A DNA stretch of 64,000 bases from Rozella allomycis CSF55 (Eukaryota): the NCBI GenBank assembly GCA_000442015.1, contig KE561054.1:62001-126000 (forward strand), read 5' to 3'. The first letter of the stretch is position 1. Each line of letters opens with the position of its first letter. Both the position numbers and the translations under genes were made by a program. The notes beneath the pieces were generated by a model, which saw nothing but the letters and a program-made list of their open reading frames with translations, ran no database searches and was not told the origin of the DNA. Below, one piece after another: positions 5,679 to 39,464 of the stretch.

Positions 5679-6491
5679 TTATTCTAAAGGCTTAATCTTA
5701 TTGGATAACATCTTCTTTCTCTTTATATACTCAAAAGTTGTTAGTTCATTCCAGTCTTTTAGTTGAAAATATACAGATTACAAAGATATATATGAAAAAA
5801 AGTTAAATATAGACCAAAAAAGATTCCGGATGTGTCAATTACAATTCGAATTATCATGAAAACTAGAAAATATAACCAAAAAGCAATATACTGAACCAAA
5901 GAGCATCAACGTGATCTATATTGTATTCTATTATTGTTAATACCAAACTGAACCCGCAAAACAATGAGAGAAAACATATCATTGAAATGAAACACCTAAT
6001 TTGGTATTCATGAAATTGCTACCAATAATTTCTTTTTCCAACACAAATATTCAACCAAATACAATGATGATCAAATCCTAGAATGCATTTTTTGCATTTT
6101 TTGCAATGCTTTGTTTTATTATTTGAACTAGAAATATTTAAAGTTATTTGTACACAAAAGATTGACAAATAGAGCAATAATAATTCCCTTTGACTTTCTC
6201 AAAATAGGTAGGAAGGGCAGACGTCAAGATTGTCATTGGGTCAATGGTATCAACATAGACCATTAAAGCCGCGGAACCTAGTAGTCCAACAGTAGCAATG
6301 TAAAAAAGCATGTATTAATCCCACAAATACTTTACTATGTTAAGCATGATTATCAATATTGTTTGATTATCTTTATGGTCTGTGATTAATACCAGAATGT
6401 GGGATGTTGTAATGAATGTGATGCAGGTAATACTCAAGAATTCAAGAAAGCTAGAGCTAATACGATTCAAAAAAGTGTGACTAACACACAT
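5679..6491 (-). CDS. DHHC palmitoyltransferase (ZDHHC1/11-like)
   Basis: Spliced: [44 protein letters not shown] and C-terminal LTTFEYI. The first TM exon joins only through a GT-TG intron at 6309-6335. Confidence 0.85.
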
Positions 6492-6581
6492 GTAATATTT
6501 GGAAATAAAACTTTGTTTGTTTACTAAGTCCAACGTAACAATGACTGTAAGCCACAAGAACAACTACCGAGCCCATACGAG

Positions 6582-7342
6582 ATGAGTGAAGAAGATTTTC
6601 GTTCCTTGATTTGTGAAGAGAATAATCCATTCTGGATAAGATTGATGGAATATATTGAGGAATTAAAGATTCTAACGATTGTAAAATAATGGCATTTTAT
6701 TGCATAGAATAATCAGCTAGACAAGTGGAAAACATTTTTTATCGATTTTTACTCTGAAAAAGCAAAAATGCATTACACTGTACGATCATCAATCGGTGGG
6801 CCTATTTTGCATGACCTATACGTGGAAGGCTCTGAAATACCGTTTTTCATGTATGAAGCCTTTTCTTTACGGGATAAAGCTGTTGATTATCGTTGGCACA
6901 TTAATAATCCACGCCTGTTTTCAAATGGGGACTTGTTCGTTTTGGATTTTCAAAAAGTGTCTATCAGGAGTGATAAGAAGAATAGAAAGGTAATTTAATG
7001 GTGGAGAAATAATTCGAGCTAATTACTGACACGGATTGTAGAATGGTATTCAACTCTATATTTAAAATTGAACTCCATGATGAAGTCATTAATTACACAA
7101 ATACATTTTGTACAAATGTGACATCCAATGAAAAAATGCATGAAAAGGAAGAATTTAATGAAAAGGGATTAACTGTCATGGAGCAAAACTTTTTCCAAGT
7201 CCTGGAGGCAAAATCAACATTAAGACGGATTGCAGGGGTAAATAATGTCAATGAAATCGACAAACCCGAAACTTCGAATGTTGAATCTCTTACGACTTCT
7301 ACATCTGAGAATCTTTTAAATAGTTTGCTAAATTTTGATTAA
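6582..7342 (+). CDS. LIM-domain-binding (Ldb1/SEUSS/Adn1/Mfg1-like) transcription cofactor
   Basis: RLMEYIEEL...[14 protein letters not shown]...IPFFMYEAF...INNPR...LDFQKVS...FNEKGLT resembles the LIM_bind domain pattern. Two short introns. Confidence 0.6.
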
Positions 7343-7367
7343 ACCATCTTTATTGCTAGTATTTTCT

Positions 7368-9691
7368 TTAAATGGAATTACTTGGATTAACTTTGAAAAG
7401 ATAGTCCGCCTTTTAACCTTATTGTGTGTTTTTACCAAAAAATCTACAGGATCCTCCGGTCTTACCTTGCAAACCTCAATCAAGGCTGAAGTAAGGGTGG
7501 GCATAACATTTTTCATCAGATAATGCCTAAGAGGAACTGATTGTGCCTCCAAGACTTCTTTTTCTTGCCTTCTTATGTCTTCTAGCCTTGAATTCCATTC
7601 AGCAACTGCCTTTGATTGTCGTTCATTCTCTTCTTTTTCTAACTTTTCTTTGTGTTTCTTTGCTTCTTCTTCCATCTTAGACTATTTTGAAGGCTATAAA
7701 AGTGTTTACTTTTTCTTCTTCCTCTTTTCGCCTTATTTCAATAATTTCATCTAAAGTGGGCCCATAATTGTGAGCTTTTCCAATAAACTTTTTTAAGGCG
7801 TTAAAAATGTCAGTATCGGACCCATATTTACTCATTTCAACGTTCAACACTGCAATTTCTCTTTCATCGAAAAAGTTCAATAGAGTGGTTTCGTCTGTGT
7901 TATTAAGACGATATTTTTCAAGGCTTGAGTTCACATCTTTTTTCATAAAAAATAAAAATTTACGCTCTTCTAATGATGCTCCTTGATTCATAGCGTTCTT
8001 TTTGACATAGTCATCTGTGGCATCCAGATGAATGACATGTTCTGGGCAAGATAGTTTGTCATATTGGGGAACATTTGATTCTTCTTTATTCTCCTCTTCA
8101 TCGAATGTGCCTTGAAAAAGAAGGCTAGCTTCTTCATTTGTGGTTGGAAACCCATCAAGAACATACCCTTGATTCTTTACGGAAGGCGAATACAGCTTCT
8201 GTTTGATAAATTTTACTAAATATTCCGAGGGTATTTTCTGATCATTTTTAATTAATGCGTTTTTATATTCCTCCAGCTCCTCTCTAGCTGCATCCCTTTG
8301 ATCATCCGCACCATCAATACCATCTTTTGGAGGACTAGTTACTTTCTTTTCCTATTTTACATGACGATTAATAGTTACAAGATTCGATACATGTTCTTTG
8401 ACCACTTCATCGATGTTTAAATAATTAATTTTGTATTCAAGAGACAGCAACTTTGAAAATTTTGTTTTCCCGCTGCATGGCGGTCCGTGAATGAAAATCT
8501 TTACTGGCCATAAATTCCAATGTGTTTTATACTCTTTAATTAGTTGGCCAACATTTTCAACAAAACCATTCTAGTTAAACTATATTCACAAAAATACTTC
8601 AAATTTCCAATCTAAACTCATTTCCTTTATTACCCCAGCGTCAATTTTTAAATTCATCATCAACATATCATAGTCTTTTTGCTCGAAGTGCTTTTCTAAT
8701 AATGCTTCTTCTTTTGGTGTGACATTCACAGTCCCATTCCCCAAATTATCCGCTATTGCCATTTTATACTAATTAATTATTTTACTTGCAATATTTCAAG
8801 GAGAGTTATCTTTGAATCATCGACAGCAACCACGTAATGTGAAGCGGGTTTGGTTTCTATAACTTCCAAGACGATTTGCACCAAATCTTGAAGATATATC
8901 ATCGGTATGAAGTTTGTTCCTTCTCCATAGCACTTTAATGGTTCAACGGTATGCCAAGCTCTCTGCAATAACGAAATTTTATGGTTTAACCTTAAAAAAT
9001 GAATGGAGGATGCTATCTCCACCATGATATATTAAACCTGGCGCAATTACATATGTCTTAAGCGGTCCTTTCTTTCCACACCTTGAAATATTTTTCTCCA
9101 AATTCAAATGATCTTTGAAATTGGGATGTGCTTTGCGTTTTCTGAAATCTTCTTCAGCCAAAATTGCATCAACCTCTTCAGCGTCAATTTTAGTTTTGGC
9201 CCAAGTTATTACAGAAGAGATACAAATAAAGATTTTTGGTCGCTCTTTAAAAAGATCCTTGTTTTCATTGAGAACTGTTGATTTAACGAAAAAAGGTCTT
9301 ACAGTCGATTGCAAATTGACATTCATCAAGATTTTGCATGATGTCGTATACAATTACATCGGATTCCATGAGAACGTCTTTTAAACTAGCATCTGTGGGC
9401 TCCTATTTCTCAAAATCAATTCATTCATGGTACTTTGAGAATTTTAAAGTTTGTGGGTGGCATGAACTCCTTTCTTTCGCAAAAATCATCTTCGTTGTGC
9501 TTCTCCACAACTGTCCCAGTAATTTTGTATGGAACATTTCCATCAGCGACGTCCTTTTTTATGTCCTCTTCTTCATTTAAATTTACTTCTGTGTCTTCTT
9601 GTGGTTTTCTAGACCCGACAATCGTTTTTGATAGAAGCAACCCTATGGAAAATGCTACTGGATCGTTGATCCTGTTTATGAAAACAGACAT
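7368..9691 (-). CDS. AK7: Adenylate kinase 7 (ciliary), with NAD-binding-like N-domain and C-terminal Dpy-30 motif
   Basis: [35 protein letters not shown]-loop [54 protein letters not shown]. Confidence 0.95.
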
Positions 9692-9813
9692 GCAATATAA
9701 ATGTAAACAAATGAATGAGACTTCAGTTATTTTATTGTTTATTATTTCTTTTCTTTTGATTTATCTTTGATTGATTCATTCAACTTTTTGTCTAAGATTT
9801 TTCGGATATTTTA

Positions 9814-10182
9814 ATGGAGTCGCTGAAGCAAAACATGGAGCAAAAACTTTCTTCAAGTGGGACTAGAGACAAGTATAAGCGAAATAATTTAGATTTCTAG
9901 ATTGAAGGTTCTATTGCAGCAGAGATTAATGGAAACCGGGTGGATAGATAACTTGAAAGCACACTGCAGAGGTTTTGAGTATTTTGTTTAATAATAGATG
10001 AAATAAAGCGCAAAAATGGAGTTACTAACGTTAATATCGAGAGTTTAATTCAGGAGATGTTGCCTTATGCCAGATGTATGAATACAGACTAATTTAAAGT
10101 AGCATCAATTCCAGAGAATGTTAAAGGAGAGGTTTTGCTTGAAATCAAACAATTCTTACAAAGAGAACTCGAAAATCTTTAA
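9814..10182 (+). CDS. SUS1: Sus1/ENY2, SAGA and TREX-2 subunit (not in ORF track; 4 exons)
   Basis: Spliced 95 aa: MESLKQNMEQKLSSSGTRDKLKVLLQQRLMETGWIDNLKAHCRDEIK...LPYARSSIPENVKGEVLLEIKQFL. Confidence 0.92.
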
Positions 10183-10204
10183 AATCAAAGAATAAAGCGA
10201 AAAA

Positions 10205-11598
10205 TTAATGTTTTATTTTCTTCCAAATCTGAATATAAGATTCAGACAAGAAAATCATTTCTGGTGCAATTTCTCTAACAGCCAAATCCTGCATCAAGTA
10301 CCAATTTTTTGTTTCCTATTCACTATAATTTCAAGCATGTTACCTCATTAAAAACGTGAACTTTGAAACAACCATCATCGTGAGCGATATTAACAGAGAG
10401 CCTATAATTGACAATCTCGCCATTAACTGGCAAGCCCAGTGAATCGACTGAATAATTCACAATCGTGGGGTTTCTTTCATTGCTCCAATTATTTTTGATG
10501 AACCTTTTAAAATGGAAAATTAAATAGTCCGGTGACTCTAGAATAGTATATGTTTTTCTGAAATTTCCAATCTCAGTTACTTGAGTGCCATTGAATTTTT
10601 CAAGCAGCAAAGCCAAAGAGACTTGAGGTATAATATTCTCTTCATTTTCGTCTCTGTATAATGGTGTTGGAGGTAAATCCAACGAAAGATATAGGAAAGG
10701 AGAGACACAACTATTTTCAACAAATGTTGCGTCATCGACCAAATCAGGTTGAATAGGCTGAGAATCAACTTTGACAAAGCCACGAAAGCATTCATGAATT
10801 ACTATTTTCGCGATTCGCTAATCTTTTTACTCGAATTATTTTTCTTTTTGAGCTCTCGATGCATAGAATTCAGCAACCAAGTCAAGAAGTCCATTGGATC
10901 AGATTGCTTAGTGGAATGAAATTTCATTTCACTTGCATCGGCAATAGTCTTTTACAATATCGCATAAATTTGTACCGCCATCAGTTCGTGAGGACTTACA
11001 TTGGCTCTAAATGCCTTTGGGTTCCAAAGCTTTTTTATGAGATCCGAAACGTTTGAAGTTAACCGCTTCGAAAACTTCCCTAGCAGCATTTCATTTCGAA
11101 ACGCTTGGACATGTGAAAGCGCGTGTATAACAACGTTAACATAGTCATTCGCCTTTATGTTATTTATACCAAGGCACCCAGGGACATATTCCTTTCGTTG
11201 TAGATCGAAACACTTCCTGTCGAACAAAACAAAATCTTCTTTAGTATATTGAGGCAAAATGTTATACTTTTTTAAACAACTTTTTCCTTTACTTTGATAT
11301 CCTCCAATGATGGTTCTTGAACCTCGTATCCATCAGGTAAGCAGAAAATTCGTTTAGATTCTAAATGAGCAAAAACATGGTGGTCTTCATTGACACAGTG
11401 GAAGTACGCCTGTGACTTGGAGCTTTTGCCCTGCAAGTATTTTCCACACACCAAGCAAATGTATATGTTGGTATTTGACAAAGTCACACTGCATATTCTT
11501 TCGTGATCAAAATCTAGATTTTTTCTGTCTATAGTACCCAAGTAGGGGCACTGAATTTGATTTTCTATGCCGTTTTCATCCGCCAACTTTCTTTTCAT
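10205..11598 (-). CDS. SAD1: U4/U6.U5 tri-snRNP protein Sad1/USP39
   Basis: ZnF-UBP CPYLGTIDRKNLDFDHERICSVTLSN; pseudo-USP GINNIKANDYVNV; LDLPPTPL; EMIFLSESYIQIW. Confidence 0.95.
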
Positions 11599-12004
11599 AT
11601 AATTACTAAATTTGACTTTCTACTTCTTTTCGTTCCACCTTTACATCATATGATTTCTAAGTTTAAATTAAAATTTTGAGACGAATATTTTTGTTCATGT
11701 TCAAGAAATCCGATATGCATAATCCTTTTTCGTTGTGAAATGTAAATTTGTGATTCACAATGCAGTATAAGAATTGTATAACAGACAACAGTCTACTAAA
11801 CAGTTTAATGGAAAAATATTTAATAATTAGTCGTGTGTTTTTAATCTCTTCATGAATAGGTATCAAAAGAGCACGTAATTTAATAGCTTACATGCCACAC
11901 TTAAGAATATTGAAAAAATAAAACGCTCCTTTATTCATTCGTAACATAAAATACCCTTGGCATTGTTTATGAAAAACAACGACTAAGCCACTGCGCATAC
12001 CAGC

Positions 12005-12834
12005 ATGCAGCGATTTGCGTCACTTCTCCGACCGAACAACCCACCCCCAGGTTACCTTCCCTCAATTCATACTCTATCCCTGAACGAAGAAAGCTCTAAT
12101 AGTGCCCAAGTTTATACGTCTTCTTCCTCAACATCCCTTGATTCCTGGTTTCCGCCTGATACCGACAGCCCTATTTCAAACGAAGCCAAAAGACTAGATT
12201 CATGGTTAAATGAAGGCTGGAATATACCAGAAGTACCAGGAGCACATACTATTCGTGAACCAGAAAAAGTTGTTCCACTAAAGAAGCCCAGCCTTAATTC
12301 GTGGGAATCTATACCTTGCAATGACGGAAGTGACGCGCAGACCTATCCAATATCAATGAAGACTGTGGATCCTAAAAATGATGTGCCTAAAAGCACCGTT
12401 CACCCATCAACATCCTTTTGTTCCCAGAAAGTCTTGAATCGAATAAAACAAGACAGAGTTACCGTACAGCCTCGATTTCAGAATTCTTTTCACGCGCCAA
12501 CATCCACCAAATCCCAATGTTCTTGTGTAAAAGAAAGTAGCCTTGACGAAATGAACGATCCGATAGTTTACCTCCGATTTTTATTATCCCACAAAGAAAC
12601 AGGCGCCCTTATTGGTAAAAATGGTTCAAGAATAAACCAATATCGAAACAGGAAGGGAATTGTGCTATTAGATGTAAACAATGCTTCACACTCAGTGCCA
12701 TCATTAAAGGGCGAATATCGTGTAATGAAAATACAAGGCCGCCTTTCCGCGGTGAATGAAGTAAGCCACATTTACAATGATCATAGATTATCAAGGAAAT
12801 CATGTCGTTCAAGAATGTGAATGCTGAAGAGTAA
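12005..12834 (+). CDS. Low-complexity N-terminus plus single C-terminal KH RNA-binding domain
   Basis: LRFLLSHKETGALIGKNGSRINQYR (GxxG loop)...YRVMKIQG; one 26-nt intron near the 3' end. Confidence 0.75.
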
Positions 12835-12907
12835 AGATTCGTTTAATTAATTTTAATAAAATGCATATTTTGAAACATAGTTTACGAAGTGTAAATGATA
12901 TTTTATT

Positions 12908-13532
12908 TCATTCATCACTATTATCAGGGCTAGAAAGTTTTTCCGTAATATCTAAAACTTCATCGTAGGTTATGTCACTTCTAGCCTTGATCATTCCTAA
13001 AATCGTAAATTACTCTGAATTGACAGTCAGCAGCGAGATGGTCAACCTCGTTGCAGATAATACAATGTATAGGTGATGGATTTTCGGCTAATTTCTGCTT
13101 CCTTTTCTCATTCAAGGCTTTTCGTTGTTCCTTTTCTATAATAAAGCGATTGCAATCATTTATGAGATGACCACGGCCACCACAGTTATAGCATCTAACG
13201 GTGTTTAAGACAATCTCAGTGGAAGTGTGCGTAATTCTATCATGGACGTCTCTTTCATAAACAAGTTTTGCAATCTATTTGAATAGACTATTGCTCGTTA
13301 CATATATTAAATGTCGTTGTGGACAGTCTTTGAAAACATGGTTTGGTAAATTGCATAATTTGCACGTTACTTCAGGTGGATAAACCCAACAATTTCGAGC
13401 GACATGTCCAGAAAAATTACATAAACGGCAAACCTTCTTTTTGGATTGGCCCTGTGGTATGACAAATGTACTAAAATGTGTTTTTATCTTATTGTAATGG
13501 GATAGAAATCCAAATTTTCTGCATTGATACAT
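12908..13532 (-). CDS. CCHC zinc-knuckle protein (4 knuckles)
   Basis: CRLCNFSGHVARNC, CKLCNLPNHVFKDC, CYNCGGRGHLINDC and CIICNEVDHLAADC across three exons. Confidence 0.8.
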
Positions 13533-13817
13533 CAAGACCCCTGTTAAGTCTGTTATCACAATTCATAGATTTTTGTAAGCTAATGTTTCAATAATAAAAT
13601 TTTAAACAGTAATTTAATATGATATTATGAAAAACCATACATAATATGATAAACAATACAATGTATTTTGGAATTTGGCATGAAAAGAACCAATTTTTTG
13701 TGAACAATAATTAAATCATTAATCTAATCATACGCTTAAGAATGAGTAGAAAGTTTCATGACAACTTCCACGTAAAGGCAAAAATAGGAGAGGAAAGCTT
13801 ATTTCACGAAAGGGTTA

Positions 13818-15662
13818 ATGGATAACGCAAAGTTTAATTTGGACCTGGAGAAACCAAAAAAGAAGATCATGGTTCAAGAGCATGACTTTGTTGATGGGAT
13901 AACACCAAAGGAAATTGAAATGACTCGGTTGGTTTTGCAATGGATGGAAGAACATGGATACAAGTACAACTATAGCACGTATATTTTAACAGAAATTCTA
14001 AACGTTTGTTGGAGCGAGAGTCTGGAATTGCAATGGAGCCAGACCTTGTATCAAAGTTCAAAAAGGCCCTTTTGAGTGGTGATTGGGATTGCGCTGGCAA
14101 TATATTGCCAAAGTTAATTAGACATGATTGTGATTATGAGGTAAAGTATGAAAAGAATAATTTAGTTGACCGCATTGTATCATTTAAAGAAACAGCAATT
14201 CATGGAAAAGATACAGGCCAAAGAAATGGGTGATGCAATTACTATCTTACAAAACGTTTTGACAAAGCTAATCCATGAACCGAAAGAATTCAATATCTTG
14301 GCAAAGTAACTAAATTGTGCATAAAATTAAAGATATATATTGCATTCAAATACTCTGCCAAAATGTTATGAATCTCGTTCAATACTATTGGACAAATTGA
14401 GTGGTATTGTAATTATTTGCGATTTACTCAAGAATTTATTTCGCCAACCTTGTTGATTCCAAAGGCTCGCCTGGAGAAATTGACGGCAAACGGTGTTGCT
14501 CACCAGCTTGAAAATTGTTATTATCATTTGTACGATGAGGGAAATACCATTTCGTTATTGTCTGAACATAACTGTGAAAAGTAAGTATTCCTATGATTAC
14601 TAGTAGGAGCGATTTCCCTAATAAAGCATTCCATAAGTTTAATGATCACAACGATGAAATTTGGTACGTTAGCTTTTCAAACCGCGGACAATATTTAGCA
14701 TCAGCGTCAAAGGATACAAAAGTCCATGTCTATAAATCACCAGTAAGCAAATCGACTATATTTATATTGTTTAAAACTTTATTTTGTTCTTTAAATGGCC
14801 ATTCAGACGCTGTCACGTTTTTAGCATGGAAGGATTGTGACACCCGTTTGTTAACTTGTTCAAATGACACGAGATTGATACTTTGGGATATTGAAGTAAA
14901 TCAAAGTTTAATTTATAAATCAGAAAAGTGGAGATATCGTTCATCAATATAGGGGCCACCAAGGGCCTGTTTTATGCTGCGCCTGGATGCCAGATGGTAC
15001 ATCATTTCTGTCATGTAGCCTTGATATGTCTATTATACTATGGGTATAGCAATAATCTAATGTATAAGAGAATATTGATGGATCTAAACACCACATTTGG
15101 ACTGGATTGAGAGTCACGGACGTTTGTGTTTTAAAAGATGGTTTGCGTGCATTGTTCACTGCGAACGAAACTAAAATAATTCTGGTCAATCTAGAAAATT
15201 TCGAGTTTGTTTGCACAATTCAAGAGTCTGATTCAATCTCATCATTAAAATTGAGTGGCGATTCTTCAAACTTTTTGGTTAATTTGGCTTCACAGGTAAA
15301 TACATTGTTATGGCTTAAAAAAGGAAATCCATCTTTGGAATATTGAGCAAAGGAAACTCGTGTCTACGTATATTGGGCACAAGCAAGGTAAGCTAATTTC
15401 GTACAATTTCTAGGTCGGTATGTAGTACGATCTTGCTTTGGTGGAAAACATGAAAACTTTATTTTAAGTGGAAGCGAAGGTAATTACTTAATTTCTCTTA
15501 GTTTACGATAACAAAGTATATGTTTGGAACAAGAAGCTGGTAAAGTGCATCGACGCTATGGAAGGTCATCAAAAGACAGTAAATTGTGTTGCATGGCATC
15601 CATACAAGCCGATATTTTGTTCAGCGAGTGATGACAAGACCATAATCATTTGGAGCAAATAA
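13818..15662 (+). CDS. GID7: WDR26/Gid7 (LisH-CTLH-WD40), GID E3 ligase subunit; start approximate
   Basis: RLVLQWMEEHGY...LERESG, GDWD, LIPKARLEKL, HNDEIWYVSFS, GHKQGRYVVRSCFGG...FILSGSE, GHQKTVNCVAWHP. Confidence 0.9.
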
Positions 15663-15831
15663 TAAACATTTATTGCTTTTATCGTTTCGTTTCTCATTTT
15701 AAAAGTTCGATAAATCTCAGGAATAAAGTAATACTTCAGTAAAAACGCCAAAGCTTTTTATATTCATCTCGCTGCCTGATCTTTTCTTTAAACAAGATTT
15801 CACTTTGGCTTTTTGGAATTTTCAATTTTTC

Positions 15832-17531
15832 ATGTCCCTATTAACGGACAAACAACAAGAAGAATTGTAATTTTCTTACTATAAATCTATAAAGGAATCT
15901 TTCTATTTTAGATTACCTACACACACGGGGCTTTTCAGTTAGCCTTCACCGATGATCAATGGCTTATTAGCCACGATTACGACAAATTAACACAATTGCT
16001 ATATATTTGCTACGTTTTCTTTACTATCATCCATAATCAGCACATGAGTATACCTAAAACAGTAGAACAAACAAACTTGACTGGAGAAGATATGGAACAA
16101 TTAGCACACATTCTTTTGCCCTGAAGTAATCAACCCATTACAATACTACCTAAAAATAGATAACACAAATCCCTAGGTATACAAATGACATTAGACAGCA
16201 AGCACGATGAGACGTTAAAACNAGAGTTTCACAACTTTAAGCAAGGAAACCGGACTGGATATAGAGAAAGATGGAAAGCAAAGATATTCAGGCCTTTTGG
16301 AGAAAAAATGGATGTCTATTCTAAGACTCCAACGAAAAGTACAATACCTCCTTTCACTTTATTAGATAACAGATTTGGAATCTAAAGTTACGCAATTGCA
16401 ATCCGAAGTAGAATCAGGGGGAATGAAAAAGACGAAAAATAAAGTCGACTTAATTCCCAAACCCCCAGAAAAAATAACGCTTAGTGGACATAGAAGCCCC
16501 GTCACATTTGTTACCTTCCATCCGCGATTTAGTTATTTGGCGTCATGCTCGGAAGATGCTACGATTAAAGTCTACGACTGGGAAACTGGCGAATTGGAGA
16601 AAACACTCAAAGGGCACACAAAGGCTGTGCATTGTATTGATTTTGACCCCAAAGGCGATCTCATCGGTAAAAATGTAGAATATTTGTTATGAAGCAAGCT
16701 GTTCTAGCGATTTGACAATAAAAATATGGGATATGAATGATGATTACAATTGTATTAAAACTCTTTATGGTCATGATCACAGCGTGTCATCAATTAAGTT
16801 TTATAGTGGTGGTGAAATGATTGCCAGTGCTTCCAGAGATAAAGCTATCAAATTATGGGAAATTTCAACGGGGTATTCTGTTTCATAAATTTTCTAAATA
16901 GATTTTGCGTAAAAACAATTCAGGGGCATTCTCAATGGATTCGATCATTAAGCATTTCCGAAGATAACAAATATTTAGCATCATGCTCCTCAGATCAAGT
17001 AGCTATTAATTTTTCGTTTGAAAGACAATTAAAATTTGGGACATTCTAACTGGGGAATGCAAAAACGAAGCAAAAGGACATGAACATGTAATTGAACAAG
17101 TTTGCTTTCTCCCTTCGACGAGTCACACTTTTATCAAATCTTTGTGTCAGCTTAAAGTAAAATTTTGAAAACTTGCAATAAAAGAAAATTGAAGGACCCC
17201 TGCTTGTTTCCGCATCAAGGGACAAGTCGATTAAATTATTTGATGGTCTTTCGGGGCAATGTCTTTATACATTTGTAATATTTTTGATTATCTGATATAG
17301 AATGGACACGATAATTGGGTGCGTGGAGTGGCTGTCCAGCCGATGGGAAAGTATCTCTTGTCTGTTTCCGATGACAAGTCTTTGAGGGTTTGGGATTTAG
17401 AGAGCGGAAAATGTGTTAAACATTTTGAAGCTCATTCCCATTTTGTGACATGTATTGCGATCCACCCATCTGCCCCCTTAGTGGCTACAGGTAGCGTCGA
17501 TCAAAAAGTTTGCGTATGGGAATCTCGATAA
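15832..17531 (+). CDS. PAC1: LIS1/Pac1/NudF dynein regulator, interrupted in the LisH exon by a ~283-bp RT-derived insert
   Basis: [68 protein letters not shown]. Confidence 0.95.
15939..16221 (+). mobile_element. Degenerate non-LTR retrotransposon (LINE) reverse-transcriptase fragment
   Basis: One frame with two stops: [28 protein letters not shown]...MSIPKT...[20 protein letters not shown]. This matches the (Y/F)ADD catalytic region through the (Y)KYLG motif. It ends at an N. Confidence 0.75.
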
Positions 17532-17574
17532 GTAATGCATTTCAAATAAATTAATTTTATTGATAGAAAACACA

Positions 17575-18595
17575 TTAATTTCCAATAAATTCTTTTCCAG
17601 CCTTTGGAAAAATGACGCCAGGGTCTTCAATTGGTGTGGCAGAATAATCTTCAGAAGAAGGCAAATCAGGTTCTTCCACTCGCACGCAATAAAATTGCCG
17701 AAGTGCATTCATCGCCGCCTTAAATGTCTATCGAATAATGCATTTACACTTCTGCGCGCTTGCTTTTCATTTGGCGCGAAACCTTCACCAAGCTTTTCTT
17801 CTCCAGAGTAAACTCCCATAATGTACATGGCGCTTTCAGATCCTTTACCATTTTCAGCTAGAATTCATTTACACGACAGCATTCCTATTACCTATATTCC
17901 GCCCTAGGCTTTTGTAATCGTCTCAAATGAGCAGATAAAATACTATTAACGTAATAATAATGCTTTAATGGATTATAATTCATACTCAAACGGTAACAAA
18001 AATTATTCAATATAAATTGGCGGCAAGCCAAAGCCCCCTGTCAAATTCAATGGAAAAATTTTACCCTTTCCCAGTACAATGCTCCGATCAGTGCAAGCAA
18101 TGATTGACAAGCAATTGTTTTATCAGTCAAATAGTTTTTCTAAATTGCAAAACACGTATAATTACGGGTAATCTGCAAACAACTTTTTGAACACCGTATT
18201 TCTGTGCCACATCAAAAAGCACACTATGTGTATAAAATTCACCGATAGTAGCGGTCAATGGAGCCACCGGGAGTTTTGGGTATTTGAAATAGATGTATTC
18301 CGTAATATACATTTTCAGCGCGGCTGAACCCATATAAGATAATTTTGCAAATCTAGGTAATGAATAAAGGATAATTAAACCTTGTGTTTGAAGGATCGGC
18401 ACTGGGATGTATTATGGCGTCAAGAAATCGTTTAGGAGACAATTCTTCAAGACCCATTCTTGCTGCCAATGCGTGCTCAGCTGCAGTTAGGGGTGACGCA
18501 CTGATTCTTCCTTGAAATTCCAAATTATTTGTCATAGAACGTAACCGTTCTATTTGATAAAGTTTCAGTTTCCGATGAACAGAAAGGGAAGTCAT
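17575..18595 (-). CDS. MRPL3: Mitochondrial ribosomal protein mL44 (MrpL3), RNase III-like + dsRBD; start approximate
   Basis: AIIHPS, AKLSYMG, ITEYIYFKYPKLP, ALIGALY; dsRBD AEYR|ILAENGKGSESAMYIMGVYSGEEKLGEG. Confidence 0.88.
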
Positions 18596-18681
18596 ATAGA
18601 GTGGCGCAGTGTGGTTTCTGTCATGAACTTCAACGTAAAATAAAAAATATATTTGCGGCAATTAATAATTGAAAATAAAAA

Positions 18682-19995
18682 ATGAAATCGTTTGAGATTT
18701 TAGTTGTGGCTGATGTTAAATAATTCTTTCGACCGGAAAGTATCTGTACTAGGGCTTGTTATTAAAGATTCGAAAAAAATTCAGCATGTTTTACAGCTTT
18801 TAAAAAAGTATCTAACATTTAAATAATGTAAAAAGGGAATCTTTGGTTATAAAATATCAAAAATTTCCAGTCGTGAGAGAAATACAGGGAGAAAAGTGTA
18901 TTATTCTTTCAGAATCTATTCAAGGTATCTATTTATGCATTATAACAATAAAGATGAAAAGGAATTCCCAGAATCGGTCCTCGAACAATTAAGAAAAAAT
19001 GACATAGAATGTAACTTTATTAAATCCGAAGTTGTTATCAAATTCGACAATTTAACGAATGATCAGGCTTTGGACATGTTATTACCTAGTGATATTGCTA
19101 GAGTAAAGTCATTTGAGAGGATCGGTCATATTGGTAATGTAATCTTAACTAGTAAAAGAGCGCATTTGAATTTGCTCCCAGAGCACGATTTATACAAGAA
19201 AGAGATTGGAAGATTGATTATTGAAAAAAATCCAGGAATTAGAACGGTTGTGAATAAAATGGACAAAATCGATACTACTTTTCGATTCTTTGCAATGGAA
19301 TTGATTGCTGGGGAATATGATATGCTAGCGAAAGTGAAAGAAGAAAATTGCATTTTTGAGTTTGATTTTTCCAAGGTTTATTGGAATTCTAGACTACAGC
19401 ACGAGCACAAAAGGTTAGTTGATACTTTTAAGCCGGGTGAATATATTTGTAAGCACATTTTTTGATTTATAAAGGCGATTTATTTGCCGGGGTTGGTCCA
19501 TTTGCCATTCCTGCAGGAAAAAAAGAATGCATCGTTTATGCCAATGATTTAAATCCAGAGTCATTCAAATATCTCCAAAGAAATATAAAATTAAACAAAG
19601 TAAATGTAATACTGACTTAATTTTTAGGTAGAAAAGTTTGTCCATTGCTTTAACATGGATGCAAAAGAATTCATCGCCGAATCTACTGGATACCTAACGA
19701 ATTCAGAATTTGATCACTATATAATGAATCTACCTGCCTCTGCTACTTCGTTTCTCAAGGAATTTAACAAGCTGACGTTTGCAAAGCCTCCTACCATTCA
19801 TTGTTATTTGTTTGCACCAAAGAATAGTCAGGACAAGGAAGTTATTAAAGTATGTCCTTACAGTTTTTATTTTAGATTGTCGAAGAAAGCTACGGAAAAG
19901 AAATAACTGGCGAAGTTTCTGTGCATCAAGTTAGAAGTGTGGCGCCCAACAAGGACATGTTTTGTTGCTCATTTAGAATGCCCAAATCAGTGTAA
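18682..19995 (+). CDS. TRM5: tRNA (guanine37-N1)-methyltransferase
   Basis: [75 protein letters not shown]. Confidence 0.96.
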
Positions 19996-20084
19996 GATTT
20001 TCTAAAAGACACGAGTAGAAAAAAAATAAAGCTAAATTAACGATTAAGAATATTATTAATAAATTTTCCATCATGCTTTATTGC

Positions 20085-24517: not shown

Positions 24518-24808
24518 GAAATTTACTTGTAAACTTTAAAACGATTGGACATAATAAGTTTAAACGATAAAAAAATAGTGATGTTTTATTTACTACTATG
24601 ACAGCTGGATGGGTGTTTTTTCAAGTAGTCCATACAAATTGGCTGCGATTAGTAAACTATGTTTTTTAAATCCAAATCCAATATATAGTTAGTATAGTTA
24701 TATAAAAAATATAGTAGATAATATAGTTTGAAATATCAACTTTGGCATGTTACTAAGACAACCTCATAGGTCTAGCCATAAATTCGAGTCTGAATCCTGT
24801 TGCTAAGT

Positions 24809-25733: not shown

Positions 25734-25885
25734 ATGGAAAACCTTCAAAGTTCAAATAAACAAACTTCATATAGATTGGTGTCATTGGCATTTGTTTTAT
25801 AGAATTATAGAATTTTTACCAAAGATTGAAAAAATGCCATCATTTTTTGATTTTTCCAAGTGGCGAAAATCTAAAAATAGGTCAT

Positions 25886-26908: not shown

Positions 26909-26985
26909 AATTAGTTTTTCTTAATAATTTACAATTCACCTATATGATTTTTGTTTGTTCCCTTCAGCCACCTCGAGTTGACGAT

Positions 26986-27968: not shown

Positions 27969-28000
27969 TAAAAGGTTGTTCTTTTTAAATATGATTTATT

Positions 28001-29401: not shown

Positions 29402-29443
29402 GACAGTTTTTGAATTTTTACAAAATAAACAGACAAATTTTTT

Positions 29444-30890: not shown

Positions 30891-30912
30891 AATAAAAGAT
30901 GCAAAAAGTTTA

Positions 30913-31967: not shown

Positions 31968-32031
31968 GCCTTTAACTTTTTTGAGCAAGGACAAAGCCTC
32001 ATTCTTAATTTCTGATCATAAGCCCTTTGAA

Positions 32032-33491
32032 ATGTTTTCTTGCCATATTTGCTCACGTTTAATTAGCGATAGATCCTCTTATTATACGTTTACGAAAACG
32101 CTTCTTTTAGGAGACAGATTCTTTAGATATTTTTGTGGAGACTGTCATTCAGGAGAAGAGATTTTATATAGATTAAAGCTATCATGGTAGCCATAAATAA
32201 TCTTTAAGTTAGGCTAGAAGCTGTTTTGTTGGCTCTGTGGAATTTGAATCGGCTCCAAGAATGTAACCTCTTTATCGCTGACCAAAAGCAAGCTATTCAT
32301 TTTATTTATATGCTAGGTACTATCATTCTGATCAAATATGTGAATTTATCGATAAAAATGAGCATAAATTTTGGGTTAATGGTTGTATATAATGCTTTTT
32401 GTCATCAAGGCAGCCAAGAATTCGTCAGTGATAAAGGACACTGTGGTGAAGACATTAGAAGAATTTGAGTTTAAATATTTTTTATCTAGTCGCACTACAT
32501 CATTAAAGCGTAATTATAGTAAGTTGTGCACAATAGACGGGTTATGGACTTTAGCAAATATGAATTGTCTGGACGAGATCCTCGCTGCCGAAAAAGATAC
32601 CGCTTTTGTTGTTTTACCAACTGGAGTTCTAGTTGATCCAATTAATTATAACGGGCAGGTATACGTGTATAACATGAATCATCGCAGAGCACAGTCGCTA
32701 AAAAGCTTAGCAGACGCGAAATTCTTAGCAAAACATACTCAAATTATGATTTCGATCGGCCTAATCCGTCAGGCAATGAGGTTCTGATGTGTCCACTAGC
32801 ATCTCATTCAGCTCCTCAAATTTTGTTTGAACCAAATGGAAAAACGATTTCGAATAAAAAGGTAGATATCTCAGCACGCAACAAAAGGGCTATTGTGTAG
32901 CCAAATCGACTCATGGGTTTGATTATGGCGATTTAGTTTATGAAGTCCATTTGCCTGTTGATTTTCAAGGGCACGTTAGAATAGGATGGTCGCATATTCT
33001 AGGGGATCCCCAAGCCGGGGTAGGATATGATGAATATGGATATTCAATCCGAGATAAAGATGGTCGTGCATTCCATGTTTCTAGATCCAAAGATTATGGC
33101 ACACCATTCGGTAACTACCTTATCGATGAAATATAGGTGCAGGGGACATTTTGGGTTGTGCAATAAAGATGCCGGAATTCGCCCCATCTGAGAAACAAAA
33201 TTATCTTAAAAGCTCCATAAAATCTGAATGGCCCCCTTTAAAGGAAGGAATATTCAACGTTGAAATGGATATTTTAGAAAACAGTCATATCGAATTCTTT
33301 CTAAATGGAAAAAGCCTTGGCTTAGCATTCGCACCAATATACAGAGGTATATGATAAAATTTTCTTGTTTTACAGGAAAGTATTATGCTGCTGCTTCTTT
33401 ATTTGGTGGAGCCAAAGTAGAAGTAAGGTTCAATAACCTGCAATATTCGTACCCTAATTACAAGACATTAGGCAGTGCTTTGCTTGAATAG
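32032..33491 (+). CDS. ASH2: Ash2/Bre2-like COMPASS subunit (PHD-like/WH + SPRY); start approximate
   Basis: LLGDRFFRYFCGDC, W..AVLLALWNL, ICEFIDKN, HSAPQ, KGYCVAKSTHG, GHVRIGWS, VGYDEYGYSIRD, IEFFLNGKSLGLAF. Confidence 0.85.
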
Positions 33492-33727
33492 TAATCAAGA
33501 CTTATTGAATGCTAAAATAAATATTAAAAATTTTGGATCTTTTTACATTTTTTTTTTGAAAGTGATAGCTGTATTTTTTGAAGTAATACAGTTATCGTAC
33601 AAGATGGATTTTGGCTTGGAAGAAGCTAAAATCATTTTCCCGAATATTTTTAAGAAGTACTATGTAAATTTTTAAATAAATTATTTTAAATATAAAAAAA
33701 AACATTTGGAAATATTCAAATATCAGA

Positions 33728-34947
33728 ATGGAAGTAGACGATCACAAAAATGAGTGGACTACACTGGAAAAATATTTACTAGCGCAGTCTGTTTGGAAAT
33801 GTGGCGATTCAAATTGGGTGGCAATATCTAGGCAGCTTAAACAACACGGCTGTTTAGCTGCGCGAAGTAGCGACTTTTTTTCACAAAGGGTATATAAAAT
33901 AACATTTTTTATAACAAGAATTGCGCATCAAAATATCAGGAGTTAGTTGAAGGATTTGAAGGCAACANGTTGAAGGGTTTGAAGGCAACAGGAAAACTAG
34001 ACACGATTTTGCAACAAGCGGAGCAAATGAGCAGAGTAAGTTTCTTTGTTTTATGGAATTAATAGTAGAAGATTTTGGTCCTGTTGTTGTTCGGTTGGCT
34101 AGAATTTTATATGCCGAACGAATGAAAGAGATTAAGCAGTTGGTCGTGTGTATGGCCCAACTTTTCAAGGAAGAAGCTGATAGCTTAAACGCTTTGAAAT
34201 GTACAGATAAATATTCGGTTATTGAGTCGAATATAAAATCTTCCTTAGTTTTACAAAAACAGCTGACTGAATCGCCTGACCCAATGCTTACCCCTGACTT
34301 GGTCTTATTAAGCCTAAAAAACTTTTTAAGCATTGAAATTACCGATGAGTTTAAAGTCGATGAACCATCCAGAAAAAGAACGAAATCAATTGAAGTTTCA
34401 TTAGACTTGAAAAAAGCTAGGATTGATGTTCAACATCAAAATACCACCACTTCAGTTACTAATGAGCACGAAGTGCAAAACGCTGTTACCGTCAATGTCA
34501 ACGAAGAGGCCGAACTCCCCATTTCACATCTTTTTAAGAAAAAGGTTGGAAAAGGTTGGTCTAAATCTGCCATTGTAATGATAAATGAAATTTACGCACA
34601 TCGTTCAGCGACTCCATTCCATACTCCTGTAGTAGAAAAAGATGCCCCGAGATATTTCGAAATTGTCAAAAATCCTATTTGTCTGAACGAAATCAAACAA
34701 AATATCAGAGAAGGGGTAATCAATCACTAAATTTTCTTATTAGTCCATTTCCTCCATTAAAGACCTTCGATTTTCCTTGTCTTTGATGATCACTAATGCG
34801 CTGGTCTATAATGATCCAGAAACGGATGTTTATTATAAAGCTATTCAACTTAATGATTTTATATTGAATAAACTAAAAAATTTTGAATCTTTAGAAGATG
34901 CCTCGAAACGGTTGGCAGCGGAACGTAGAAAGAAAAAACGACAATAA
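33728..34947 (+). CDS. BRD8-like SANT/Myb + bromodomain protein (NuA4/TIP60)
   Basis: WTTLEKYLLAQSVWKCGDSNWVAISR, ARILYAERMKEIK; bromodomain PFHTPV..KDAPRYFEIVKNPICL...NALVYN. Confidence 0.85.
33946..33990. repeat. 22-bp direct duplication flanking a single N (assembly junction); copies differ by one synonymous base
   Basis: GTTGAAGGATTTGAAGGCAACA-N-GTTGAAGGGTTTGAAGGCAACA; GGA vs GGG (both Gly). Confidence 0.9.
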
Positions 34948-34964
34948 ATGTATTTTTCTTTTTA

Positions 34965-35890
34965 TTATAGTCTTCCCATAATATTCATTGCGAACTCAAA
35001 TGCCATAAATGTCATAGCATTCACCGGGAAAGCCCTTAAAATACAAGGAACGAATCCACGGTAAAGGGCAGAGTACCCGCCTTGTTTAACGATTGTACTA
35101 AAACAATTTAAAGAACTTGAGTATTTGGCGTTTTTACCAAAACCATCTGTTTGAATGCATGATTTAATCAAGTCTACGGGATACAAAAACGTCCAAAGAA
35201 TAACACCGGAGGTACCACCAGCCAAAATGACTTGCCAAGAGGAAAGATCGGTTCTACTATTGACGTTATAAAATTTTATGAAGCGATTAATGATTTTTTC
35301 ATATGCTGCAAAATATATTCCATATCCAAAGAATTCCCTGGGTACCAAATGCAAAAGAACTTACCTGATCATAGTTATACAGTGTCCCTTATATAGCCCA
35401 TTAAAACCATGGGATTTGTAGATTTTTTGAATGGCATCTATTGAACCCCTATATAATTCACTATTCTTGGCTTGGACTTGAAGCCTAATTCTAATATGCT
35501 CCACAGGGGTCGATGCAATAGAATTGGATAATCCAGAAATACCACCAGCGACATACAACTGAGAAAGAGTTAAATCTTTCCCACCAAAAACCCTTTTCAT
35601 TGCTTCAAGGGCGCCAAACTGTATAGAGACACATGCGCCAATCCCTATCAATGGCGTTGATGACCCCTTTATTCATCCTATATATAGTTTACTTTATAAA
35701 ATGCCAATGCACCTTCATTCTTAAATGTATTTTTGATGCAAGACATGGTAGAAGGGTATAAATCTGGATTAGATTGCATACGAACCTTAACAGTATCAAA
35801 AGGCTGTCCAACCAAAACTTGAACAATACCACCAAACCATCCGGCTGAAAAATCTTTCAGGTATCTTGTTGCACTGTTTTCTTCATTCAT
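34965..35890 (-). CDS. YMC1: Mitochondrial carrier, Ymc1/Ymc2-like
   Basis: KDFSAGWFGGIVQVLVGQPFDTVKVRMQ, GIGACVSIQFG, PVEHIRIRLQ, YPVDLIKSCIQTD, RAFPVNA. Confidence 0.88.
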
Positions 35891-35974
35891 CGTGGCTTGA
35901 GCGTTGTCAAGATCACATCAAGTAAAAAGTGCAATAAATGTAATAATACTCTCTTTATTTTTAAGATTATTACT

Positions 35975-36625
35975 TCATATCTGCTTCAAAGGTTGTACTT
36001 TTGAATATGGGATAAGCCCAGCCTTACCAGTTCTTTCATTTAATCCATGCAGCCAGCCTTCTGAAACAATAATGCAGTTAGTTAAAGTGTCTCCAAGATC
36101 CATTAAAACCTCGCTAGGATCCTCGGGGCTATTAATTGAGACCGCTTTGCAATGAAATGATTTCTGGAGATCGTAATTGGATTCGGTGGTTTGCAATTGC
36201 ACAAAGCTTGAGTGACTGATAGCTCCGTTATTGCTCTGGTTTTTGTCTATATTATTTATTTGGTATAAATTACTAGGCGATCCCTGTGAATTGTAGGAAT
36301 TCGCTGCCAACGGACTAGTCCCTATCACCTTCATATGATCTGCGGTGTACGCGATATGACTCTGCAGTTTAGAGTTAATTTTTAAACGCTCTAATTCCAA
36401 TGTGTCTGTAACCACTGTTGGCTTTTGTTCAGGATAATGTGCTCTGCAATATGGGATTTTGTCCAGCCCCAGGCAAGTTTTCATTGTCAATTTAATTCCA
36501 CATACGTTGCAACTAAAACACGATTTATGCCATGGTTTTTCAAATACTATTAACAGGTCTACAGGGTATACCGTTTTTTGGCATTTTGAACACTCTTGGC
36601 CATTGTTACTGATATTTTCTTCCAT
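35975..36625 (-). CDS. LASP-like LIM + nebulin-repeat + degenerate SH3 protein, intronless
   Basis: LIM CSKC..TVYP...WHKSCFSCNVC...PYCRAHYP; nebulin-like TVVTDTLELERLKINSKLQSHIAY; SH3-like EGWLHG...TGKAGLIP. Confidence 0.85.
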   Translation of the reverse strand: MEENISNNGQECSKCQKTVYPVDLLIVFEKPWHKSCFSCNVCGIKLTMKTCLGLDKIPYCRAHYPEQKPTVVTDTLELERLKINSKLQSHIAYTADHMKVIGTSPLAANSYNSQGSPSNLYQINNIDKNQSNNGAISHSSFVQLQTTESNYDLQKSFHCKAVSINSPEDPSEVLMDLGDTLTNCIIVSEGWLHGLNERTGKAGLIPYSKVQPLKQI

Positions 36626-36729
36626 CGGAGATTTGTAGCTAATAGAGAATTCTACATCTTGCCAAATACATTGCCTTTTTGCTTATTCCACAGATGAAAT
36701 ATTATGACACATTAAATATACGAATGAAT

Positions 36730-37242
36730 TTATTTATTGATCAAATGCTCAGTAATAGTGGATCGGGAAAAGTCGTTCAGATAGATTAATGTATCATAAC
36801 CCTCTTCCCATTGAACTCTGCATGATCTTTCTGGATAGCACTAGATAATTAACCAGTATATGTTGAAATTACTCCTAAAACGAAAATATTCACCCTACTG
36901 CCATACACTTTTGCCAACCTTATCCATTTGGCCCGTTCGCTTGTCATGGTTAAAGTGTGAGTTAAGACAATTATTTTGAAATCCTCTGTTGAATTTGATT
37001 ATAATATTACTCTTTGAAAATATTCATTTGCCAAATTTAATTCTGCTTTAGTAGAACCTGCAATCACCTTCCAGCTCTGTATATTTTTAATAAATCTAGT
37101 TACAGGATCATTGTCTATTATAGACTTTACGAGATCTGTATCGGTATTTCTATTCCCGTCACCAAAAAGAATTACTTCTCATTCCCGATTAATAGTATAA
37201 GAACCATGTGCCAGAATCTCTGTTGCCAAGGATTACACTCAT
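36730..37242 (-). CDS. Small multi-exon hypothetical protein, possibly a degenerate P-loop-kinase fold; 5' end unresolved
   Basis: Exons joined by 27-32 nt introns: EVILFGDG...KIIVLTHTLTMTSERAKWIRLAKVYG...WEEGYDTLIYL. No Walker A. Not in ORF track. Confidence 0.5.
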
Positions 37243-37266
37243 ATCAAATAGAATTAAATTTTTTTT

Positions 37267-39464
37267 ATGGTTCAGACAACTGGTCAGTCTATCCGTGAGT
37301 CTGTGAATTCCAGTTTTGATATTTTGATATAAATGAAGTTTTGGTCAGTTTTAAGGTACAATTTGATCATGAATGCGTGAGGGCGTTTATTGAGTTTTGT
37401 ATTTCCTTTACTCCAAATTTCTCAATTGAACAAATGAATTATGGAACGACTGAACAGATCTTGAAAACAATTTTTTCATCGGATAACAAAAATATACCTC
37501 AAATTTGCCTAGATTTGACTACATTTTTGCAAAAAGCAGATTCTTTCCAGCTTTATAAACTTCTTCCAGTCCTATTAAGAGAATTTTTTGGCTCTCTGGA
37601 CAAGCCGTATCATATTTTCTATGTGTAACATAAGGGGATACATCAGTAGGATAAAAAATGAAGAAGAACGGATATCTTTGAAAGAATTTCTACGAGTAGA
37701 AGGCCCTTTATTTATCGCTTGCCTTAAGAATTTTTCAAACAGAAACTACCTATACCAAATTGATGGAGAAACATTTCCGGTAGCAATGCAAATATTCTAA
37801 TAATAGTTTCCATTAAAACATTATCTTATGAATCAAGAATTTGAGCTCGTTCCTCAATCCTTTTTGGCAAGGATGTCCAACACATTTATCATAGGAAAGT
37901 GCAACAATCTAGAGTTGGACATTATGGAGTTTTTTCTTTTTAATTTCCTAATATCTGTGAAACATATTCCTTATCTGGAAGTGGAATCTCTTAATTATTC
38001 CACAACGACTTCGGGGTTACGAAAATTGTCTCCTATGTCGTATTTTAAATCATCAAAGGTCTCAGTTCACAATTCAGATCTTATGGTGGAATTATTGGAA
38101 GAATATTTTGCCTATTTTATCGTTTGCGGAAATGAATGCCGTCTTAGCGTTTTGAATTCTCCCTTAGTTGTTGATATTTTTAGTGTGCATGTCCATCAAA
38201 TGATGGCTTCTGATATGATTCTTTTTTTGCTTGCCGCTGTTTCAGAATTTTGGCTTCATATTGAGGATGCCGCTCTTAGACCACCAGTATGATACGAAAT
38301 TAAACCTAATATAGAATAGGATAATTTTAAATAAGCGACTGATGCATTCTGTTAAACTGTTTATCCAGCATTTAATACAACTCGACTTTAATGACATGAT
38401 TCCGGGTTCGGCAACCTTAAAAGCGTAATTGTACCCATTTCGTGTTTATAGCTCTATTTTTACGCTTGTTCAAAGGTGCTTGTACCAATATTTTGTAGTA
38501 GCTTTTGAACATGCCGATGACGTTGAGTTTCCATTATTGACATGGGCCACTTATGCTTTTCCCGCCAACTTATCACAGGAGTATATCCATATGAACTTTG
38601 TATTTTACTCGGTTATTACACAAAGAATATTTGTTCATTTTATAAAACAATGCGAAAAACTGACATCGAGCAAAAAGAATCCTAATGATTTATTGTCTTT
38701 AATGGCCAAATTATTACATATTTTATCATCCAATGAAGCTGTTGTCGATTCGATTAGGATAAGTAAATTTCTTTTGTAAAGTGTAGCTTAGTGGAGGACT
38801 TTGCATGTCAACCTGGTAATGAAATTTCCAACCAAATATCCCAATTTGAAGGAAGTGCCTTTTACTACAAAAGATTTTTCGCGAATGAAGAATGCGAATT
38901 AGTAAAATTACTTTTGACGCATGTTTGGCACTTTAAGGTGCTTTTCAATGACGCGCAGACACAAATGAAGATTCAGGACATATTCAATCAAACTCAAATA
39001 ATTTTTCAAGTAATCACCCTATTTTCCAAATAATGTTATCTATTGAGGATATGGAAACAATAGAATTAAGCTCCTCGTTGATAAAAAAGTCAATTCCACT
39101 CTTTGCTGAATCCGAAAAGGGTTTTCTTACCCAGCAAGGAAAGAATCAATTGAAGCTCGGGGCTAGGAAATGTTCAAACAAAGACCTTGTTCCCCGTTAT
39201 AATGCCGAAAAACTTATAATTCAAACCCATGAAATTGCAATACTGGCTCAATTCCTCTATTCACTTTCCGAAGAAATCAATGGACGCGTAAAATCGAAAA
39301 TGTAACATAAATAGATTGAAAAATTATTAAAGTCGGTTGAATTTGTGGACTCTCGAGTCTTCAAAGTAAATTTACGACCCCTGGCTTCAATTAACTTTCA
39401 ACTACGAGCAGCCACAATAATTTTTGTTTCATGGATAGTTTTCAAAATAATAAATTTATTTTAA
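37267..39464 (+). CDS. SMPD4 (neutral sphingomyelinase 3)/NET13-like protein
   Basis: MEFFLFNF, SEFWL, TWATYAFP, NFVFYS, LTQQGKNQLKLGARKCS, THEIAILAQFLYSLS, VNLRPLAS, C-terminal TM. Confidence 0.75.

Follow-up and report, generated by a model that had tools for sequence, protein, structure and literature searches.

Candidate mini-introns ending in ATG within an intron-rich window of the Rozella allomycis genome

We analysed a single stretch of nuclear DNA from Rozella allomycis CSF55 (contig KE561054.1, positions 62,001 to 126,000 of the forward strand), hereafter called the window, which was examined over its full 64 kb and whose first letter is position 1. The elements of concern are very short introns in four of its genes, encoding adenylate kinase 7 (AK7), mL44, an SMPD4-like protein and a DHHC protein, for which an ATG has been proposed as the 3′ end, whereas nearly all introns end in AG. 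The window uses the standard genetic code, has approximately 35% G+C and is gene-dense, with its genes broken up by tiny introns. Exons in the window match the R. allomycis CSF55 proteins EPZ33485.1, RKP22033.1, EPZ33492.1 and RKP20959.1 exactly or near-exactly. A dicyemid origin, considered at first in view of the 26-nt introns and the G+C content, was rejected once the AK7 and mL44 exons gave these matches. The EPZ and RKP records represent two assemblies of one strain that lie a few substitutions apart, and the window sequence is the EPZ version. A published table lists 2.5 introns per kb of coding sequence for R. allomycis (PMC8476143), which agrees with the intron-rich character of the window.

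Genes were modelled by dynamic programming on codon-usage log-odds, with GT/GC..AG introns of 18-80 nucleotides (nt) allowed. Greedy removal of introns over-spliced the sequence and served for locating genes only, and a screen of open reading frame pairs was too lenient and noisy for use. The solver placed 138 introns in 25 paths scoring at least 25 bits, and 142 in paths of at least 9 bits, such that the figure of roughly 190 introns in the original prediction was of the right order. Among them, 117 have GT..AG ends and a length of 25-30 nt, the mode being 26 nt (6 of 25 nt, 38 of 26 nt, 24 of 27 nt, 23 each of 28 and 29 nt, and 3 of 30 nt). A simple count over the window of the spacing between GTAA and TAG likewise yields a sharp peak at 26-29 nt, as do the GTA..AG linkers that join open frames.

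These canonical mini-introns form a remarkably uniform class. Their donors begin with GTA in 104 of 117 cases and with GTAA in 68, and their final trinucleotides are TAG (59), AAG (35), CAG (18) and GAG (5); thus, G is scarce just before the terminal AG (5/117 at position -3). In 115 of the 117, the acceptor is the first AG located at least 25 nt from the donor. Sixty-three of them pass over internal AGs, and in five the last AG so bypassed ends at position 17. The shortest intron placed by the solver is 23 nt in length, with the search having begun at 18 nt. Canonical introns of 31-33 nt also occur in the window, and the longer ‘introns’ proposed by the solver are mostly intergenic or remove coding sequence. 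By our reading, none longer than 33 nt was accepted inside a gene model, with the longer ones having been checked in part.

The original prediction had proposed that at least four mini-introns in this region end in ATG, and the sequences it quoted for the DHHC, AK7 and SMPD4 genes are indeed found where it placed them and on the strands it assigned (Table 1). Two of these proposals, those for AK7 and mL44, are well supported by our analysis, whereas those for the SMPD4-like and DHHC genes are not established. All four candidates have GTAA at the donor and A at position -3, and their lengths fall inside the range of the canonical mini-introns. None has an AG 18-32 nt from the donor. The first AG past 25 nt is located at 33, 34, 38 and 58 nt for AK7, mL44, SMPD4-like and DHHC, respectively, which corresponds to 7, 8, 12 and 31 nt beyond the TG. 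The candidates therefore do not follow the rule of the canonical class, in which the terminal AG is the first one at 25 nt or more.

Table 1. Coordinates of the genes, candidate TG-ended introns and AG-ended alternatives in the window
Feature	Position	Strand	Description
AK7 gene	7345..9751 (approximate extent of solver path)	-	EPZ33485.1, named adenylate kinase 7/8 domain protein; orthologues named adenylate kinase 7
AK7 candidate mini-intron, 26 nt	8760..8785	-	GTAAAA..AAAATG, phase 0; best-supported TG acceptor; picked blind by wildcard solver
AK7 alternative, 17 nt	8769..8785	-	GT..TAG, adds three residues; in both public models (P0001, P0017)
mL44 gene	17578..18597 (approximate)	-	EPZ33492.1 / RKP20959.1
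mL44 candidate mini-intron, 26 nt	17866..17891	-	GTAATA..TAAATG, phase 2, putative TG acceptor; joins ..AEY(R) to ILAENGKGSES..
mL44 alternative, 59 nt	17833..17891	-	GT..AAG, removes conserved strand; in both public models (P0013, P0016), which read ..AEYSAMYIMG..
SMPD4-like candidate intron, 26 nt	39010..39035	+	GTAATC..ATAATG, phase 0; no AG until position 38
SMPD4-like alternative, 38 nt	39010..39047	+	GT..GAG, in frame, four residues fewer; choice of canonical-only solver
DHHC candidate intron, 27 nt	6309..6335	-	GTAAAG..TACATG, phase 0, in-frame TAA; removal places hydrophobic segments before DHHC domain

The AK7 gene offers the clearest view of such a junction. Its family assignment is secure, with orthologues matched at E values of 1e-40 to 1e-55. 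As the original prediction held, removal of 26 nt restores the continuity of LEILQ with AIADNLG, and the alternative TAG, which would define a 17-nt intron, is in frame. The three residues inserted by this shorter intron are absent from all eight aligned orthologues, and only the 26-nt removal leaves the alignment gapless; the alignment comprises 8 of the 11 non-Rozella matches, with P0006, P0009 and P0011 left out. The other AGs reached from this donor are unattractive, given that the one at 17 nt would create an intron shorter than any placed by the solver and lies in the zone of skipped AGs, and the one at 33 nt gives a frameshift. Among the extra residues of the public proteins from both assemblies, the ATG is read as a methionine. 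Those assemblies are independent and carry substitutions elsewhere, so the ATG of AK7 does not stem from a read error; this speaks against a systematic TAG-to-ATG sequencing error, which had been named as an outcome that would overturn the proposal.

An uncultured relative adds to the evidence on the AK7 intron. When the AK7 exon alone was used to scan metagenomes, with a query that contained residues from non-coding open reading frame sequence, no relatives were identified. When the scan was conducted with the AK7 alignment, 79 loci were recovered, including one of 1,255 nt (L016) whose product shares 59% identity with the AK7 exon upstream of the junction. This locus carries five introns of 26-28 nt, all of which end in AG, and four of the five occupy the same alignment column as an intron in the window. 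One of these four is the counterpart of the intron in question: it is located in the same column, is 26 nt long, interrupts the frame in phase 0 and has GT..AAG ends. The original prediction had suggested looking for orthologues that carry AG at a shared intron position, and for AK7 such an orthologue thus exists. Its presence at the same column, phase and length indicates, as judged from the alignment, that these three properties of the AK7 intron are ancestral, and that the TG of Rozella stands where the relative has AG. The entire locus (L016, 1-1255) should also be a useful outgroup for studying intron evolution in the Rozella lineage.

The public AK7 models (EPZ33485.1 and RKP22033.1) differ from the orthologues in other places as well. 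Both omit a stretch of 12 residues, encoded at 8586-8620 on the minus strand, that is kept in all eight orthologues and in the uncultured relative, and they also omit further segments. These several omissions give the models the appearance of ab initio predictions that contain several errors.

The mL44 gene presents a distinct situation in which every junction that preserves a conserved exon has a non-AG end. Its upstream exon ends with ..PRAEY followed by two bases, and its downstream exon, ILAENGKGSESAMYIMGVYSGEEKLGEGF.., matches the yeast and Neurospora mL44 chains from residue 1 or 2 onward (E values of 4e-5 to 1.5e-4), as well as a relative of 361 amino acids (P0014). When searched against a representative library, this 51-residue exon produced three matches only. 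A TGA directly precedes the exon in its own frame, and the junctions that keep the exon are limited to introns of 26, 29 and 32 nt, which end in ATG, AAT and TCT. The TAG that would complete a 34-nt intron causes a frame shift and an immediate stop. Comparison of the spliced products with the 361-residue relative by phmmer gives 38.1 bits for the 26-nt form, 36.0 for 29 nt, 33.4 for 32 nt and 24.9 for the public 59-nt form, which thus scores 13 bits lower than the 26-nt form. The frame relation across this region is identical in both assemblies, and a canonical solution would require the upstream exon to contain a 1-nt assembly error. The expectation that standard gene finders would mis-annotate genes of this kind is borne out by both examples, in that the public AK7 model gains three residues through its 17-nt intron and the public mL44 model loses a conserved strand through its 59-nt intron.

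These same two junctions emerged from a blind run of the solver in which any non-AG end at 25-30 nt was permitted for an extra penalty. The run used 19 such wildcards in 56 paths, and their ends were diverse (AA three times; GA, AC, CA, CG and TG twice each; six others once each). The only two with TG were those in AK7 and mL44, and each has a length of 26 nt. The remaining 17 either have non-GTA donors (10 cases) or are located at the end of a gene or on the strand opposite a gene model. Given that ATG makes up 0.0197 of the trinucleotides, the probability that two junctions fixed by homology would both end in ATG by chance is approximately 4e-4, a value that ignores the by-eye detection of these cases in the first place.

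The SMPD4-like candidate is less readily judged. The 38-nt GAG alternative named in the original prediction exists and is in frame, as is true for the 17-nt TAG of AK7. The frame downstream of the SMPD4-like junction is open far upstream, and consequently any intron whose length is 2 mod 3 would work. A match to the Pfam family mit_SMPDase (PF14724) covers only residues 17-89 of the next exon, with an E value of 0.035 that falls below the cut-off, and the junction is not alignable. This weak match means that homology cannot place the junction, and also that the family name is weak, hence our use of ‘SMPD4-like’. Points favouring TG are the modal length of the resulting intron and an ATG end in common with the two solid cases. 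The 38-nt acceptor has the advantage of being canonical, but at 38 nt the intron would exceed the longest accepted GTA-donor intron (33 nt). We judge the use of TG here to be about evenly balanced, and both TG and AG could be used.

Similar uncertainty surrounds the DHHC candidate. The exon downstream of the proposed intron is a clear member of its family (Pfam PF01529, E value of 1.9e-14), and DHHC enzymes have two membrane spans that precede the catalytic loop. With the 27 nt removed, the DHHC domain is preceded by two hydrophobic segments (residues 18-36 and 43-71), and the frame upstream stays open over 76 codons, for which the chance expectation is approximately 0.01. Against the intron stands the codon usage of the upstream region, which scores -1.1 bits over 30 codons, and its terminal ATG may be a plain start codon. 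A search for homologues of the exon found none, and also found no annotated protein of at least 98 amino acids that contains the adjacent exon. The prospects that this 27-nt TG intron is real appear to us about even. If the protein begins at the ATG at 6491 on the minus strand, its start would be only about 90 nt from that of a divergent gene on the plus strand (approximately 6582), and such a spacing would imply a very short shared promoter region.

Other features were noted during the survey of the window. A 28-nt segment at 14177-14204 (+) was considered as a further ATG-ended intron and rejected, because a canonical 25-nt GTT..AAG intron solves the junction, and an orphan donor at 40872 (-) was dismissed because it lies inside a canonical 28-nt intron. 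A Dicer-like gene, in which two RNase III-like motifs are visible, contains an open frame of 872 codons without interruption at 44043-46658 (+), unusually long for such an intron-rich window. Between this gene and the next, the solver placed a 43-nt ‘intron’ (46967-47009, +; GTAATT..AAAG) in which an in-frame ATG ends at 31 nt, and this could be a further TG case or an artefact of two chained genes. Three isolated N characters are present at 16222, 33968 and 55253, one of which falls within the model of a LIS1-like WD40 gene. Scans of the window with Rfam and for transfer RNAs returned no matches.

We consider it reasonably probable that a few Rozella mini-introns lacking an AG at 25-30 nt are spliced at the UG within an AUG, approximately 26 nt from the donor, and a TG acceptor is well supported by sequence for AK7 and mL44. 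The evidence seen directly consists of the sequences and their reading frames, of homology that spans the junctions, and of the AG-ended intron at the orthologous site in the relative. From these we infer that the RNA is cut after UG, and the manner in which this might occur. According to the mechanism we propose, the acceptor would be picked mainly by distance, such that AGs less than about 25 nt from the donor are passed over in favour of the first AG beyond this point. Where no AG is available at 25-30 nt, productive splicing would occur at the UG inside AUG at 26 nt (27 nt for the DHHC candidate). A short spacing from branch site to acceptor might dock whatever is correctly positioned into the second-step site. 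The G at -1 would be kept, and either the U at -2 would be tolerated or the AG pocket would be filled by the A at -3 together with the G at -1, leaving the U bulged. An AG close by, located 7-12 nt downstream in three of the cases, may aid early recognition, as in human TG-AG tandems. Relaxed fidelity of the second step, which the original prediction had offered as one cause, is possible. Its other suggestion, that AG recognition has been lost, does not fit, because AG is still read at the end of all 117 other mini-introns, 115 of which obey the ruler. A more sweeping version of our proposal would invoke a spliceosome with a ruler of about 26 nt for which AUG is a constitutive acceptor wherever AG is out of range, with obligate non-AG introns at the per-cent level and gene models that are systematically wrong. 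On present sequence data we regard this version as less likely than not.

Several observations weigh against the use of TG acceptors. The bare GTAA..ATG pattern is not enriched in the window (11 and 12 occurrences at 26 and 27 nt versus about 12 at other lengths), and GTA..TG linkers of open frames do not peak at 26-29 nt as the GTA..AG linkers do. Among filtered candidates for non-AG introns that link frames there is no excess of TG (4, versus 12 for AT and 9 for TT); this screen has low power, given that each orphan donor has two in-frame lengths and that many of these donors are GTA triplets beside true introns. The raw pattern is therefore at chance level, and the signal comes from gene context alone. 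TG is rarer close to canonical 3′ ends than it is deeper inside introns (7/262 versus 112/1755, p = 0.016), but between position 24 and L-2 (where L is intron length) GT is depleted as well, which points to a general depletion of G and means that the scarcity of TG is not specific support. Furthermore, the 26-nt form of mL44 leads the 29-nt form by only 2 bits, and neither a three-residue insertion in AK7 nor a deletion in mL44 relative to orthologues would be impossible, even if unusual. The 17 other wildcards were judged to be spurious by their positions and not by homology. The sample is tiny, a single 64-kb window with two solid cases and two undecided ones, and an RNA run bearing the same species label, when compared with window positions 1-20000, gave only chance pieces of 21-34 nt and no joints. 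In a study on human TG acceptors, these are reported never to be the sole acceptor, and mutants in which AG is changed to TG activate other AGs (PMC2374985).

The most conservative alternative is that only AG acceptors are used, as annotated, with introns of 17 nt in AK7, 59 nt in mL44 and 38 nt in the SMPD4-like gene, a DHHC protein that starts at the ATG, and lineage-specific indels to account for the differences from orthologues. Both public annotations carry such models, all four alternatives are in frame, small indels are common in fast-evolving parasites, and for the SMPD4-like and DHHC genes the tests that were run leave this reading standing. However, an intron of 17 nt is below the solver minimum of 23 and ends inside the zone of skipped AGs, and the insertion it creates is absent from all eight orthologues and from the uncultured relative. 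The public AK7 models also miss the conserved stretch of 12 residues, and thus they are not transcript-backed in that region. Likewise, the 59-nt intron discards residues that match yeast and Neurospora mL44 at the cost of the 13 bits noted above, and an open, conserved, in-frame stretch would be unexpected in an intron. On balance, we regard the restriction to AG acceptors as improbable. Sequence or assembly error, or gene decay, would explain the same sites through a true AG whose A was read as T, or through a 1-nt indel that hides a canonical intron. The three single N characters do reveal an imperfect assembly, and one base missing from the upstream mL44 exon would make the 34-nt TAG intron workable. 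Yet the ATG of AK7 is a methionine in two assemblies and the frame relation in mL44 is equal in both, the same A-to-T error is unlikely to recur at four sites, and the downstream exons of AK7 and mL44 are intact and conserved. We therefore consider errors or decay to be very improbable.

Another alternative is that TG and a downstream AG operate as a tandem with mixed output. In this scheme, the downstream AG is recognized first, after which splicing occurs partly at AG, giving out-of-frame products in AK7 and mL44 that are degraded, and partly at TG. The AGs located 7, 8 and 12 nt past the TG in AK7, mL44 and the SMPD4-like gene are within the 28-nt limit of human tandems (PMC2374985), and the window does contain canonical introns of 31-33 nt. 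For DHHC, by comparison, the next AG is 31 nt away. The A present at -3 in all four candidates is at odds with the pyrimidine preference reported for the human sites, and the waste of transcripts in two housekeeping genes would be costly. We view a tandem of this kind as unlikely. A further possibility, that these are split genes whose translation re-initiates at the ATG, was rejected: the ATG of mL44 does not lie in frame, and the AK7 site is an ordinary intron in the uncultured relative.

The choice of an acceptor by its spacing from the branch site, with tolerance of non-AG ends, is familiar from U12-type introns and from yeast second-step mutants. The Rozella candidates differ from U12-type introns in that none of the four donors carries the U12-type box, [AG]TATCCTT. 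A closer precedent is found among human TG acceptors, which in the report by Szafranski et al. 2007 (PMC2374985) are described for 36 genes, are U2-type, and are always alternative to an AG no more than 28 nt away. The Rozella candidates resemble these sites, as there described, in having a GT donor, an ordinary U2-type context, TG in place of AG, and a nearby AG (here at 7-12 nt in three cases). In contrast, the Rozella TG would be the only productive site, would be used by roughly 2-4 of 120-140 introns, and would lie 26-27 nt from the donor. The two also differ at position -3, which is A in all four candidates and preferentially a pyrimidine in the human sites (PMC2374985).

GT-TG junctions have been recorded elsewhere as rare events, among them in the survey by Parada et al. 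2014 (PMC4176328). In Ganoderma lingzhi they number 22 of about 92,000 junctions (0.024%) and are no commoner than other non-AG ends (PMC11590231). By comparison, GT-TG would represent approximately 1.5-3% of introns in the window, where TG is the only supported non-AG end. The mini-introns of Rozella also resemble the ultra-short introns of dicyemids, myxobolid myxozoans, ciliates and microsporidia, for which the available text of two papers (PMC13644364, PMC6543705) describes a mode below 30 nt, reduced motifs and a 3′ signal that amounts to little beyond the terminal dinucleotide. In these systems AG is the 3′ signal, and a non-AG class is not mentioned in those portions of the two papers. 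The 2026 paper among them names ciliates, microsporidia and dicyemids as the exceptions with introns below 30 nt, and Rozella is not listed in its introduction (PMC13644364). The literature we searched on Rozella introns and splicing and on GT-TG junctions, as far as its text was available, contained no report of non-AG acceptors in Rozella. We therefore read the AK7 and mL44 cases, on the sequence evidence, as a variant of the rare and already known GT-TG intron class. If a distance ruler truly operates, obligate non-AG introns at the per-cent level would be a phenomenon undescribed for the U2-type spliceosome.

At least two public gene models in the window, those for AK7 and mL44, are wrong at the claimed sites, and annotation pipelines that permit only GT/GC-AG introns will repeat such errors across the Rozella genome and probably in its uncultured relatives. 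If RNA data confirm the junctions, use of UG as the sole productive U2-type acceptor at an appreciable rate would be known for the first time, in Rozella. If this is true, the AG rule of the second splicing step would become testable in a natural minimal-intron system, one that lies at the base of the lineage leading toward microsporidia with their reduced spliceosomes.

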